Shown: positions 1,498 to 62,436, numbered from the stretch's first letter. The stretch: 64,000 bases of DNA from a bacterium (GCA_030693205.1 JAUYBG010000006.1:68015-132014), one strand, 5' to 3'. Notes: generated by a model from the letters alone, not told the origin. Numbers and translations are program-made.

Positions 1498-2034
1498 TCA
1501 TTTTTTTGTCTTTGAAAAACTACCTTTGATCATATTCTCAATCTTTTCAATCTGGCTACCAGCTATTCTAATCGACTCTTCAAATCCGCCCGCGTTAATC
1601 ACCAATTTTTTTACTTTCAATAATGATCTATCGATAAATGCCGGCAATTTAAACAAGCTTCCGAAAGGCGGAACTGTCCCGCCTTTTTTAATTTTAATTA
1701 TATTTTTTTTGATTATCGCCTCAGCTGCAAAATCAATTTCTTTAACCGCTTTAAAAACTTTCTTTTCCGTTTTAGCTGTTTTCTTCAGCCAATCATTATA
1801 CAACTTCTTGAATTTTTCCTTGTCAAAATTCTTATCCGCCGGAATCGAAGCGATCACATATTGCGCGAATTTACCTGCACCTAATTTCAACGCCACGGTT
1901 TTCGCCACTTCCTTTGGTTTGATCTTTAGCGTATTAGCCTTATCCAAAGCCGTGTAAACCGTCTTATGCTTTATAAGCTCGTATTTTACTTTCGCATTTT
2001 TCAATAATTTTTCGAGGTTTTTTAAAATAGCCAT
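1498..2034 (-). CDS. YbaK/ProX-type aminoacyl-tRNA deacylase
   Basis: 178 aa, Lys-rich YbaK-like fold signature (GGTVPPFG, INAGG). Confidence 0.55.
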   Translation of the reverse strand: MAILKNLEKLLKNAKVKYELIKHKTVYTALDKANTLKIKPKEVAKTVALKLGAGKFAQYVIASIPADKNFDKEKFKKLYNDWLKKTAKTEKKVFKAVKEIDFAAEAIIKKNIIKIKKGGTVPPFGSLFKLPAFIDRSLLKVKKLVINAGGFEESIRIAGSQIEKIENMIKGSFSKTKK

Positions 2035-2132: not shown

Positions 2133-2852
2133 TTATCTACAATCGTTTATCACTTTTTCCACATTAAATATAGCCTCTTTATCCGATTTTTGAACCTTAA
2201 CAATATGAAACGGGCTTGTAAGCGCTTGGGTTACCGCGCATCCGCGCCCGGGAGAATTTTCAAGCACTGAAACTTCAATTGTATTTCCTTTTTCCGCGAT
2301 CATATTGATTTCTGTGCCATATCCGCCGGTGGATTTTCCGCCCTGGAATACGGCAATGATCATATCTTTATCAAAATCTATCGGCGCCGGTAATTCCGCG
2401 TTGGTTTTTTGCAAAATCGGCATCCATTCGGATTTGCTTTTTATCACATAATTGCCTTGCCCTGTTGGATTGCCGTTTAAGCCCTTTATTATTGTTTTAA
2501 ACTTCAATTCGTTTCCCGGCATCGCATTGGCTTCGCAAGTATTCCGGCATTCTTCCAAACTGCCAAAAGGAAGTTTATCTATGCATCCGGCGCCATTTAC
2601 AACAACACATTTTCCTTCAATCGAATCAAACTCAAATCCTATTGCCGAACAAATATCGCTAACTTTAGCTTTCTGGCTGCACGGCGAATTAACTGATTTT
2701 ATTTTTGAATCAACTGCGGGGTTTACCGCAACCGGCAAATTACTTTTCCCTTTCTTTTCAAAAGCCAAAATAAATCCCAGTACGGCGCTAATGCTTAGAA
2801 TGATCATCAGAAGTAAATATATTCGAGCTGGCGATATTTTTCGTGCAAACAT
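2133..2852 (-). CDS. membrane-anchored protein with a Kunitz/BPTI-like six-Cys domain fused to a PrcB-C-like domain
   Basis: N-terminal TM helix, then C-x9-C-x13-C-x7-C-x11-C-x3-C with a Kunitz-like ...GKCvvvnGAGC...FgsleeCrntC block. C-terminal half resembles the PrcB_C family (AVFQGGKSTGGYGTEI ... VTQALTSPFHIVKV). Confidence 0.5.
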   Translation of the reverse strand: MFARKISPARIYLLLMIILSISAVLGFILAFEKKGKSNLPVAVNPAVDSKIKSVNSPCSQKAKVSDICSAIGFEFDSIEGKCVVVNGAGCIDKLPFGSLEECRNTCEANAMPGNELKFKTIIKGLNGNPTGQGNYVIKSKSEWMPILQKTNAELPAPIDFDKDMIIAVFQGGKSTGGYGTEINMIAEKGNTIEVSVLENSPGRGCAVTQALTSPFHIVKVQKSDKEAIFNVEKVINDCR

Positions 2853-2880: not shown

Positions 2881-4254
2881 TTATTTTTTTTCTTCCTTGA
2901 TAATCTTTTCTTTATGTAATAACAAATCGATCCGCTTCATATCGCGCGGAAAAAGAGTCGCTTCTTTCACATTCGCCAGTCCAAGAAGTTTCGCGGTTAA
3001 GCGCTCCAAGCCAAGCGCTAATCCGCCTTCCGGCGGCATGCCGTATTGAAAAGCCATCAGATAGAACTTAAAATTATCCGGATCAATTCCCCGGCTTTTT
3101 ATGCTTTGCACCAATTGATCGTAATTATTGATGCGCTGACCGCCGGTAGTGATCTCCGCGCCGCGAAACAGCAAATCAAAGCTCTTGGTGTAAGCCGCGT
3201 CTTTCTCGTCCGGCATCGTGTACCACGGCCTCTTCTTGGTCGGATAATGAGTGACAAACAAAAACTCCGAACCGAATTCTTTCTCGGCATATTCCGAAAG
3301 TATGCGCTCTTCTTCCGGTTCCAAGTCAAGATCGTCGGTTTTTTTACCGGAAATTTTTCTGGCGATTTTTTTAGCTTCCGGAAAAGTAATCGCGAGAATA
3401 TCGCCTATTGCTTTAGGCAATGCCACTCCAAGCGTCTCAAATTCACTTCGGCAATTAGCGCTCAGATGCGCAAATAAAAACTTAAGCCATTCAGTTTCAA
3501 TTTTCATCAAATCCGTATGATCTTTAATAAAACCCATTTCAATATCCAAACTAGTGTATTCGTTCAAATGCCTCGTGGTATCGTGCGGCTCGGCCCGATA
3601 AACATTGCCAATCGTAAAAACGCGCTCAAATACCCCCACCATGATCTGCTTATAAAATTGCGGGCTTTGCGCCAAATACGCCTTGCTTTCAAAATATTCG
3701 ATCGGAAAAACCTCGCTTCCGCCTTCGGTTGCTTCCGCCACTATTTTTGGCGCCTGAATTTCCGTAAATCCATTTTTTGAAAAAAAATCATGGAAAGTTT
3801 TTATAATCTCGGCCTGTACTTTAAAAATCGCCCGCACTCTGGCGTGCTTAAGGGTTAAAGGCCTCATATCCAAAAGTGTTTCAAGTCCCATATCAAGTTT
3901 CTCCGCGCCAAGATCAATAGGCAAAGGCTGCGCGGAGTTCAATACTACTAACTCTTCCGCCAGCATTTCCACTTTCCCGGTCGGAATTTTTTCATTGATC
4001 ATATTTTTCGGCCGTTCATTGATTGTGCCTGTGATCTGTACCACGTATTCGGCTCGCAAGGTTTCAGCGAGCTTTTGAAATTCCGGATTTTTCTTATTCG
4101 GCACAAAAACCACCTGGATAATTCCGGTGCGATCACGAAGATCGATAAAAATTATTTTGCCGTGATCCCGCCTGACATTCACCCAGCCGGCAAGCATCAC
4201 TTTTTGACCAATATTTTTTGGAGTATCTATGGTTAAAATTCGTTCCATATGCAT
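2881..4254 (-). CDS. aspS: aspartyl-tRNA synthetase (archaeal/eukaryal type 2)
   Basis: OB-fold N-terminus (KVMLAGWVNVRRDHGKIIFIDLRD) and class II core motifs (FRAE, GGSEV, GLERL). The track start at 4311 is probably upstream of the true start (MHMERILT, 4254/4248). Confidence 0.85.
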   Translation of the reverse strand: MHMERILTIDTPKNIGQKVMLAGWVNVRRDHGKIIFIDLRDRTGIIQVVFVPNKKNPEFQKLAETLRAEYVVQITGTINERPKNMINEKIPTGKVEMLAEELVVLNSAQPLPIDLGAEKLDMGLETLLDMRPLTLKHARVRAIFKVQAEIIKTFHDFFSKNGFTEIQAPKIVAEATEGGSEVFPIEYFESKAYLAQSPQFYKQIMVGVFERVFTIGNVYRAEPHDTTRHLNEYTSLDIEMGFIKDHTDLMKIETEWLKFLFAHLSANCRSEFETLGVALPKAIGDILAITFPEAKKIARKISGKKTDDLDLEPEEERILSEYAEKEFGSEFLFVTHYPTKKRPWYTMPDEKDAAYTKSFDLLFRGAEITTGGQRINNYDQLVQSIKSRGIDPDNFKFYLMAFQYGMPPEGGLALGLERLTAKLLGLANVKEATLFPRDMKRIDLLLHKEKIIKEEKK

Positions 4255-4417
4255 AGTATTAGGTATTATTAAGTATAAATCTATAAGATATAAAAATCTA
4301 AAAACAGCCAAAATTCGTCATTTCTTATAATTCATTCTAGCAAATCTTTTACTTTTTGGCAAAGAAAAAACAGCCCTTTGGCTGCAACGCAAAAAATCAA
4401 AGATATTAAGTCCGGCT

Positions 4418-9531: not shown

Positions 9532-9604
9532 GGGTCGGTAGCTCAGTCGGTAGAGCAACAGCCTTTTAAGCTGATGGTCGTGGGTTCGATTCCCACCCGA
9601 CCCA
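9532..9604 (+). tRNA. tRNA-Lys (anticodon TTT)
   Basis: Cloverleaf by eye: acceptor gggtcgg/ccgaccc, anticodon loop cttttaa, T-loop ttcgatt. Close to E. coli tRNA-Lys. Confidence 0.85.
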
Positions 9605-9652
9605 CTAAAATAACGCATAACTTGTAATTAAAAACTTATAACGCTATATATT

Positions 9653-40876: not shown

Positions 40877-40995
40877 ATAAAAGTAAACTTTTGCTTTTTC
40901 CTCGTTTCACAATTATAGGACTTGAACCCCGATACCATTTGCCTTCGGCAAAGCTACGGGGCAGGCCTATGACCTTTTGTTGTTTCACACATCGG

Positions 40996-41069
40996 TGGGC
41001 ATATCTGGACTCGAACCAGAGACCTCGTCGATGTGAACGACGCGCTCTAACCAACTGAGCTATATGCCC
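40996..41069 (-). tRNA. tRNA-Val (anticodon CAC)
   Basis: Minus-strand cloverleaf gggcatatagctcagttggttagagcgcgtcgttcacatcgacgaggtctctggttcgagtccagatatgccca. Confidence 0.8.
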
Positions 41070-61991: not shown

Positions 61992-62063
61992 CGCGGGGTA
62001 GAGCAGCGGCAGCTCGCAAGGCCCATAACCTTGAGGACGCTGGTTCGAATCCAGCCCCCGCAA
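61992..62063 (+). tRNA. tRNA-Met (CAT), initiator-like
   Basis: Acceptor cgcgggg/ccccgca with a C1xA72 mismatch; anticodon loop cccataa; T-loop ttcgaat. Confidence 0.75.
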
Positions 62064-62152
62064 CTATCAAACCCATAACTCATAACATATAACTAATAAC
62101 GATAAAAAATTTTTTGTTATAAGTTATGGGTTATTGATTATGAATTGATTAG

Positions 62153-62226
62153 GCCGGGATAGCTCAGCCGGTTAGAGCGTGGGACTCATAAGCCCAAGGT
62201 CGAGAGTTCGATTCTCTCTCCCGGCA
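62153..62226 (+). tRNA. tRNA with CAT anticodon (elongator Met or Ile2/lysidine type)
   Basis: Acceptor gccggga/tcccggc; loop ctcataa. Confidence 0.7.
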
Positions 62227-62275
62227 CAAAAATCATTGATTTGAAATTTTAAAACCTGATTATTCCGCGCAAGGC

Positions 62276-62350
62276 GGACCGTTGGTGTAGCCCGGTTAAC
62301 ACGTCTCCCTGTCACGGAGAAGACCGCGGGTTCAAATCCCGCACGGTCCG
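62276..62350 (+). tRNA. tRNA-Asp (GTC)
   Basis: Acceptor ggaccgt/acggtcc, discriminator G, loop ctgtcac. Confidence 0.8.
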
Positions 62351-62436
62351 CTTTGATTGGAATGAAAAATTTATTGAATTTTATAAATCATAATAAAAAG
62401 CGCTTTTGGCGCTTTTTATTATTTGCGAAAATATTC

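Follow-up and report, generated by a model that had tools for sequence, protein, structure and literature searches.

What might a bacterium gain from a protein that carries, behind a single hydrophobic helix, a six-cysteine block resembling the Kunitz/BPTI protease inhibitors and a C-terminal half resembling PrcB, a subunit of a surface protease complex? We address this question for one gene in a stretch of bacterial DNA (GCA_030693205.1 JAUYBG010000006.1:68015-132014), whose full 64,000 nucleotides we call the window. The gene's product is identical to NCBI MDP3057127.1, and its deposited name is only 'MAG: protease complex subunit PrcB family protein [bacterium]' (MAG, metagenome-assembled genome). 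The closest homologs to which NCBI gives a name are Patescibacteria, and the source organism is probably a Patescibacterium, an ultra-small and probably episymbiotic bacterium. Our analysis assigns the six-cysteine block to a divergent prokaryotic branch of the Kunitz/BPTI superfamily and suggests that the protein may act as a membrane-tethered inhibitor or binder of proteases at the cell surface.

The gene encodes an N-terminal helix, a six-cysteine block and a PrcB-like domain

A preliminary description of the locus, made by a model from the sequence alone, had proposed a membrane-anchored fusion of a Kunitz-like and a PrcB_C-like domain, with five cysteine spacings of 9, 13, 7, 11 and 3 residues. 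Translation reproduces those spacings exactly: the cysteines of the block are residues 58, 68, 82, 90, 102 and 106, or C-x9-C-x13-C-x7-C-x11-C-x3-C, and the protein has two more cysteines at 205 and 238. The N-terminal transmembrane helix of that description also agrees with both hydropathy and the AlphaFold model, in which residues 8–33 are helical. The full-length model has a mean pLDDT (predicted local distance difference test) of 76. The features of the gene are as follows.

2133..2852, minus strand: whole open reading frame, 239 amino acids; stop codon at 2133-2135
2754..2831, minus strand: N-terminal hydrophobic helix, residues 8–33, PARIYLLLMIILSISAVLGFILAFEK (hydropathy, AlphaFold helix 8–33, translation)
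2682..2753, minus strand: low-confidence linker, residues 34–57 (pLDDT <50 at residues 34–55)
2535..2681, minus strand: divergent Kunitz/BPTI-like domain, Cys58 to Cys106, CSQKAKVSDICSAIGFEFDSIEGKCVVVNGAGCIDKLPFGSLEECRNTC (profile, hhalign and fold matches)
2661-2678, minus strand: residues S59–V64, SQKAKV, holding a Q-K-[VA]-K motif after the first cysteine of the block
2640..2657, minus strand: predicted primary binding loop D66-I67-C68-S69-A70-I71, corresponding to P4-P3-P2-P1-P1'-P2' (hhalign register, column entropies, translation)
2136..2513, minus strand: PrcB-like domain, residues 114–239, with the conserved pair C205/C238 within 2136-2240 (Pfam, NCBIfam, AlphaFold)
2193..2363, minus strand: PF14343 PrcB_C core, residues 164–220 (Pfam match)

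The six-cysteine block is homologous to Kunitz/BPTI domains

Taken by itself, the window protein did not sustain the Kunitz assignment of the preliminary description. A Pfam scan returned no PF00014 match even at E ≤ 10, and a single-sequence phmmer search against Kunitz domains in the PDB gave weak matches, with E between 0.12 and 2. Since both searches were too weak, profiles of homologs were needed, and it is at the level of the family that the assignment holds. A Kunitz family profile built from the equivalent segment of 11 homologs retrieved TFPI (E 1.4e-10), boophilin (1.2e-9) and a snake-venom Kunitz inhibitor (1.3e-7) from the PDB, and continued down through BPTI and APPI; all 60 of the matches listed were Kunitz domains, with E from 1.4e-10 to 1e-3. 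Ten of the 11 homolog segments touch PF00014 individually (best E 6e-5), and a precomputed PF00014 match is carried only by two stand-alone relatives, P0015 and P0020.

Profile–profile comparison places the block in register with its canonical counterparts. We aligned the family by hhalign with a canonical Kunitz alignment that comprised BPTI, APPI, TFPI-K2 and seven repeats of a canonical multi-Kunitz protein found in our search. The comparison returned a probability of 96.4% and an E-value of 1.4e-9. C68, C82, C90, C102 and C106 fall on BPTI C14, C30, C38, C51 and C55, that is, on the second to sixth cysteines, and the register extends to the aromatic strand and to the motif of the C-terminal helix. 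Within the collected sequences, searches with hidden Markov models (HMMs) were reciprocal: the family HMM matches all 11 canonical repeats of the protein P0109, and the canonical HMM matches the family. P0109 itself (904 amino acids, P1 mostly Lys) looks animal-type and served only as a source of canonical domains.

Structural prediction is consistent with this assignment. Both the full-length AlphaFold model and a domain-only model built on 33 aligned domains (pLDDT 74) have a beta-hairpin and, after it, a C-terminal helix. In the domain-only model the strands lie at model positions 19–25 and 30–36 and the helix at 48–59, equivalent to protein residues 70–76, 81–87 and 99–110. When this model was compared with the PDB by Foldseek, the 50 best matches were all Kunitz structures (TMq 0.59–0.65, TMt up to 0.69, root-mean-square deviation 2.5–3.2 Å over 51–57 columns, probability 0.99–1.00). 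The full-length model retrieved mostly the same Kunitz structures together with a few low-probability ribosomal chains, and over both models the probability for Kunitz matches was 0.92–1.00. The corresponding E-values are modest (0.01–0.5), because the domain has only about 55 residues. Of the checks that the preliminary description had proposed, the Pfam scan gave a clear match to PF14343 and, for the window sequence alone, none to PF00014; profile comparison and AlphaFold modelling, which draw on homologs, support the Kunitz assignment.

The six cysteines are invariant in all 33 related domains. This open reading frame is the only one in the 64-kilobase window to match a permissive regular expression of the Kunitz type, and likewise the only one to match the family HMM. 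By these sequence comparisons the six-cysteine pattern is not a product of chance, and with the models added we regard true Kunitz/BPTI homology of the Cys58–Cys106 block as highly probable. From the alignment register and the fold matches, the predicted disulfide connectivity is 1-6, 2-4, 3-5 (C58–C106, C68–C90 and C82–C102).

The predicted contact loops include the most variable columns of the domain

The spacing of the cysteines (9/13/7/11/3) compares with a canonical 8/15/7/12/3: their number and order are the same, and three of the five intervals differ by one or two residues. Most relatives have the canonical 15 residues between the second and third cysteines. In the hhalign register C68 corresponds to BPTI C14, S69 to K15 (P1) and A70 to A16 (P1'), with I71 at P2', so that the loop of the window protein reads D-I-C-S-A-I and retains the P1' Ala; Ala or Gly, the usual choice in canonical Kunitz inhibitors, occupies P1' in 18 of the 33 domains. 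Column entropy is highest (up to 3.4–3.6 bits), and insertions and deletions are most frequent, in the primary loop (P3–P4') and in the equivalent of the secondary loop. The scaffold is conserved, and so are the stretches GYEFD, PF and SLEECQKxCE.

At P1 the 33 domains carry Glu in 12 cases, Ser and Lys in five each, Asp and Ala in three each, Arg in two, and His, Thr and Pro once each. Because P1 is predominantly acidic in the family, and given the general relation between P1 and S1 specificity, this distribution suggests Glu-specific bacterial S1 proteases of the glutamyl-endopeptidase type as possible targets. The family has a further feature in the Q-K-[VA]-K motif directly after the first cysteine, which contains the invariant Lys K61 (columns 10–14 of the 33-domain alignment) and has no counterpart in canonical Kunitz domains; it may be structural or provide a second binding surface.

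The C-terminal domain is related to dentilisin PrcB, and the protein is predicted to be extracytoplasmic

The resemblance of the C-terminal half to PrcB_C, also noted in the preliminary description, proved to be a clear Pfam match: PF14343 covers residues 164–220 with positions 1–55 of its 56-position model (E 8.8e-15; score 55.1 bits, cutoff 24). The NCBIfam model for dentilisin PrcB, NF033596, aligns to residues 116–229 with model positions 62–175 of 176 (E 3.2e-17). Its score of 62.9 bits lies below the equivalog cutoff of 125, which indicates homology, not orthology, to dentilisin PrcB. AlphaFold models this part with ten-residue block pLDDT values of 78–94 from residue 131 and of 77 and 81 for residues 111–130. 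Orthology to dentilisin PrcB was rejected on the score together with the lack of prcA- or prtP-like neighbours; by its profile scores the PrcB part is a paralogue-level relative, not an orthologue.

Several lines of evidence point to an extracytoplasmic location. Basic residues R4, K5 and R10 precede a hydrophobic stretch of about 20–26 residues, with a mean Kyte–Doolittle value of 2.77 at about residues 11–29. We read this helix as a signal-anchor (type II) membrane tether, and cleavage by signal peptidase may also occur. The protein has no lipobox cysteine of the PrcB type, there being no cysteine before residue 58; the N-termini of its relatives are of signal-anchor or lipobox type. Apart from the invariant cysteines of the Kunitz block, the equivalents of C205 and C238 occur as a pair: of 42 PrcB_C proteins with a single such domain, 33 have both, nine have neither and none has just one. 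Such strict co-occurrence implies a C205–C238 disulfide, and by extension an extracytoplasmic location for most of the PrcB_C family. In other proteins PrcB_C co-occurs with the surface modules SLH, LysM, PG-binding (peptidoglycan-binding) and PKD.

Kunitz and PrcB_C domains belong to a modular family that recurrently includes I42 inhibitors

A first homolog search yielded 12 relatives, among them P0002 and P0003, which are named Patescibacteria at NCBI. We then scanned 1.84 billion representative proteins exhaustively by HMMER with a combined Kunitz+PrcB_C profile, counting clusters at 50% identity. The profile matched 3,924 clusters at E ≤ 1e-10. About 20 clusters, with lengths of 205–695 amino acids, match the whole profile as a single stretch; below these fusions, the best 150 of the 3,924 match almost all through the PrcB_C part. 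A pattern-limited search for Kunitz and PrcB in GTDB representative genomes gave three loci, one of them (a Patescibacteria MAG) with both domains, a count that is no measure of rarity because the patterns limited the search.

The common layout of the family is a membrane anchor, then variable modules, then Kunitz+PrcB_C. Alignment shows the linker of the window protein to be the site at which homologs insert these extra modules, which are Ig-like, Cys-rich or of the chagasin type I42. Chagasin-type I42 accompanies Kunitz+PrcB_C in P0003, P0008, P0010 and P0026 (I42 E 4e-24 in P0026), whereas P0012 combines Kunitz and I42 without PrcB_C, P0043 and P0048 combine I42 and PrcB_C without Kunitz, and P0009 has PrcB_C alone. 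Because the Kunitz/PrcB_C units are repeatedly fused to I42, two established inhibitor families recur in one modular family. The recurrence of I42 with PrcB_C, whether or not Kunitz is present, also bears on the function of PrcB_C.

The remaining variable modules are Ig-like, with sub-threshold matches to Big_14 only, or Cys-rich, or lack an assignment. A reading of the relatives' Ig-like 'TDKTEYEQGE' modules as BsuPI-type intracellular protease inhibitors was dropped, as they gave only sub-threshold Big_14 matches and one BsuPI match at E 0.15. Among the 164 proteins collected, PrcB_C forms tandem arrays of up to seven copies. Two relatives bear a Cys-rich extension of about 80 amino acids C-terminal of PrcB_C that has no Pfam match (residues ~499–582 of P0026 and ~238–317 of P0033).

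When searched by itself, the Kunitz profile retrieved short stand-alone versions of 59–91 amino acids with signal-anchor or lipobox N-termini. Two signal-anchored proteins of the same divergent subtype, P0017 and P0014 (83–84 amino acids), lie on archaeal contigs:

L006 8001-8252: P0017, from a groundwater metagenome, on a contig that also carries a PheT of archaeal type (474 bits; cutoff 283) and a gene resembling RNase P component 3
L011 6741-6995 and L012 7606-7860: P0014, on contigs with aIF2-alpha and archaeal Cdc45-like genes

These stand-alone forms make the divergent Kunitz subtype common to Patescibacteria and archaea.

The gene lies among housekeeping genes

Both neighbours of the gene are on the same strand:

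2881-4311, minus strand: aspartyl-tRNA synthetase (AspRS), adjoining the gene
1498-2034, minus strand: YbaK-like editing protein, the other neighbour, followed by ScpA and ScpB, also on the minus strand

The same order of AspRS, gene, YbaK-like gene, ScpA and ScpB surrounds P0002, which is 73% identical to the window protein. This ortholog (L004 4192-5307; L005 6918-8033) has, between anchor and Kunitz domain, an additional Ig-like module of some 132 amino acids that is a sub-threshold Big_14 match, and the comparison indicates that close orthologs gain or lose whole modules without a shift of frame. P0003 lies in a different housekeeping context. Each of the three modules occurs only once in the window.

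The sole peptidase-like neighbour among the inspected loci is a weak Peptidase_M10 match at L013 1287-2069, two genes upstream of the stand-alone, lipobox-bearing Kunitz-like P0016 (3294-3524); since Kunitz domains target serine proteases, it is probably coincidental. Other features of the window are three clustered tRNA genes (Met, Met, Asp) at 61992-62351 on the plus strand and single genes for tRNA-Lys (9532-9605) and tRNA-Val (40994-41069), with no other Rfam family above threshold.

A surface protease inhibitor or binder and its rivals

The explanation we prefer, to which we would give about an even chance, is that the protein is a membrane-tethered, extracytoplasmic, two-module inhibitor or binder of proteases at the cell surface. 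The uncleaved signal-anchor helix would fix it to the cytoplasmic membrane, with some 25 residues of flexible linker extending the remainder outward. The Kunitz module, braced by three predicted disulfides, would present D66-I67-C68-S69-A70-I71 to the active site of a serine protease with the chymotrypsin fold (S1), binding in the manner of a substrate by the 'standard mechanism' known from canonical inhibitors, with a secondary loop around G87–C90 also making contact. The PrcB module, by analogy with PrcB and PrtP of Treponema denticola, would bind a second, probably subtilisin-like, protease. Together the two modules might protect the cell surface of an ultra-small bacterium, probably attached to a host, against proteases that come from the host, from neighbouring cells or from the bacterium's own genes. 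The strongest circumstantial support is that the unit is repeatedly fused to I42 and that variation in sequence and length is concentrated in the two predicted protease-contact loops.

A number of observations weigh against this explanation. In the loop, P1 is Ser; the position of BPTI Gly12, Gly in 23 of 33 relatives, is Asp; and two residues present in BPTI and most relatives are deleted at P3'/P4', a deletion limited to a small sub-clade of the window protein, P0002, P0012, P0022 and P0026. Many Kunitz domains are non-inhibitory, some being channel-blocking toxins and some structural. The Kunitz part is modelled with moderate confidence (pLDDT 63–84 over both models, 63–75 as ten-residue block means in the full-length one), and besides the failure of the window protein to match PF00014, no relative scanned reaches the Pfam gathering cutoff of 21 bits, the best being P0033 at 20.7 bits. 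T. denticola PrcB works as part of an active protease complex and is not an established inhibitor (PMC8167434). Finally, no candidate target lies nearby: a scan of all open reading frames in the 64-kilobase window for S1 (GDSGG), S8 (GTSMA/HGT) and C1 (CGSCW) motifs gave no match, and no S1, S8 or C1 protease gene adjoins the window gene or its inspected homologs.

The atypical loop and the lack of a protease neighbour would also fit a non-inhibitory protein for surface binding or adhesion, or a structural protein of the envelope, in which the Kunitz domain is a disulfide scaffold and PrcB_C a binding module, perhaps for attachment to a host. The Q-K-x-K motif between the first two cysteines hints at a different functional surface, and the Ig-like (Big_14-like) modules of the family are typical of surface and adhesion proteins, as is the company of SLH, LysM and PKD that PrcB_C keeps elsewhere. 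We nevertheless think this somewhat improbable: the recurrent chagasin fusion points to proteases, the sole characterised PrcB protein works by binding one, and most relatives keep Gly at BPTI position 12 and Ala or Gly at P1'. Distinctly unlikely, in our view, is a role as an anchoring or chaperone subunit in a dentilisin-like surface complex that the organism itself makes, with PrcB stabilising a subtilisin-like protease encoded elsewhere and the Kunitz domain keeping that or a second protease latent. Homology to nearly the whole of mature PrcB, which is needed for PrtP stability and is anchored to the surface by its N-terminus, and the analogous layout of membrane anchor, linker and PrcB domain speak for such a role. 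They are countered by a score far under the equivalog cutoff, by an N-terminus without a lipobox and by the occurrence of PrcB_C in thousands of clusters, often in tandem, which is ill-suited to a dedicated one-to-one subunit. Moreover, with no prcA- or prtP-like gene by the window gene or its homologs, no S1, S8 or C1 motif in the window, and AspRS, YbaK-like, ScpA and ScpB genes in conserved order around it, the locus is not a dentilisin-like operon. That the Kunitz-like pattern is merely a set of chance or convergent cysteines in a linker, unrelated to BPTI, is effectively refuted; the weak direct Pfam, phmmer and Foldseek statistics would allow it, but the profile and hhalign matches, the reciprocal HMM searches, the almost exclusively Kunitz structural matches and the invariance of the cysteines would not.

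If the protein is indeed a surface inhibitor or binder of proteases, it gives ultra-small bacteria a testable candidate for protection of their surface against proteases of host or community. The recurrent fusion to Kunitz and chagasin domains would also be a first contextual clue to the role of PrcB_C, a domain with thousands of sequence clusters and one characterised member, in binding or controlling surface proteases. A bolder proposal, which we rate as unlikely, is that PrcB_C is itself an unrecognised inhibitor or protease-capturing domain and that the family forms anchored 'inhibitor arrays' of Kunitz, chagasin, PrcB_C and Ig-like modules for episymbiont survival at the host interface. 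The stand-alone forms on archaeal contigs would make its Kunitz domain a prokaryotic lineage, one that either passed between Patescibacteria and these archaea or arose before the fold radiated in animals.

Comparison with known systems

Judged by sequence, both domains fall in known superfamilies, the Kunitz part as a divergent prokaryotic clade mostly missed by Pfam-based annotation, and no new mechanism is involved. In the literature we searched, no paper was found on Kunitz domains with PrcB, Patescibacteria, DPANN (ultra-small archaea) or archaea, nor on PF14343, nor did any paper there describe the architecture of transmembrane helix, Kunitz and PrcB_C, the variants of it that bear I42, or the stand-alone forms of archaea. 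A paper on host defence against epibionts concerns Esx secretion, not proteases (PMC13622651).

The block shares with the Kunitz/BPTI family (PF00014; MEROPS I2; BPTI, the KPI domain of APP, the TFPI domains, boophilin) the number and order of its six cysteines, whose spacing is near-canonical, the predicted N-terminal turn, beta-hairpin and C-terminal helix, a G-x-C-P1-A loop motif kept in most relatives of the window protein, an aromatic strand (GYEFD here, RYFYN in canonical domains) and the C-terminal motif F...EEC..xC. It differs in being prokaryotic and membrane-tethered, in having Pro-Phe in place of Asn-Asn-Phe, and in a P1 that is mostly acidic in the family and Ser in the window protein. 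Kunitz/BPTI domains are regarded as inhibitors that belong essentially to animals, bacteria supplying very few (PMC11511053), in agreement with their rarity in bacteria as given in the preliminary description. The one report on a bacterial Kunitz protein that we found concerns the five-Kunitz 'exotoxin' F6W77 of Acinetobacter baumannii, whose BPTI-type domains are reported to inhibit serine proteases and for which its authors propose transfer from animals (PMC11511053). F6W77 has canonical, animal-like domains with Arg at P1, is secreted and lacks PrcB_C, whereas the family described here is divergent, prokaryotic and anchored.

For the C-terminal 126 residues the closest characterised system is T. 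denticola PrcB, a lipoprotein subunit of the PrcB-PrcA-PrtP complex, to which they are homologous over nearly the whole mature protein. PrcB binds and stabilises the subtilisin-family protease PrtP, is needed for PrtP protein to be detectable, and is anchored to the surface via its N-terminus (PMC8167434). In both proteins the N-terminus is a membrane anchor and a linker comes next, with a surface position predicted for ours. The anchor is a lipid there and a transmembrane helix here, a Kunitz domain lies between anchor and PrcB domain here, and the spirochete's prcA-prtP operon has no equivalent at this locus of a probable Patescibacterium.

A looser parallel is offered by the whole architecture. 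Animals have compound protease inhibitors such as WFIKKN, which combines WAP, Kazal, Kunitz and NTR modules, and eppin, which combines WAP and Kunitz. The proteins described here are, in contrast, prokaryotic and membrane-anchored, and the window protein has one established inhibitor module, the Kunitz domain, as PrcB_C is not an established inhibitor. Its relatives P0003, P0008, P0010, P0012 and P0026, with Kunitz and I42 together, resemble the animal proteins in carrying unrelated inhibitor modules in one chain.

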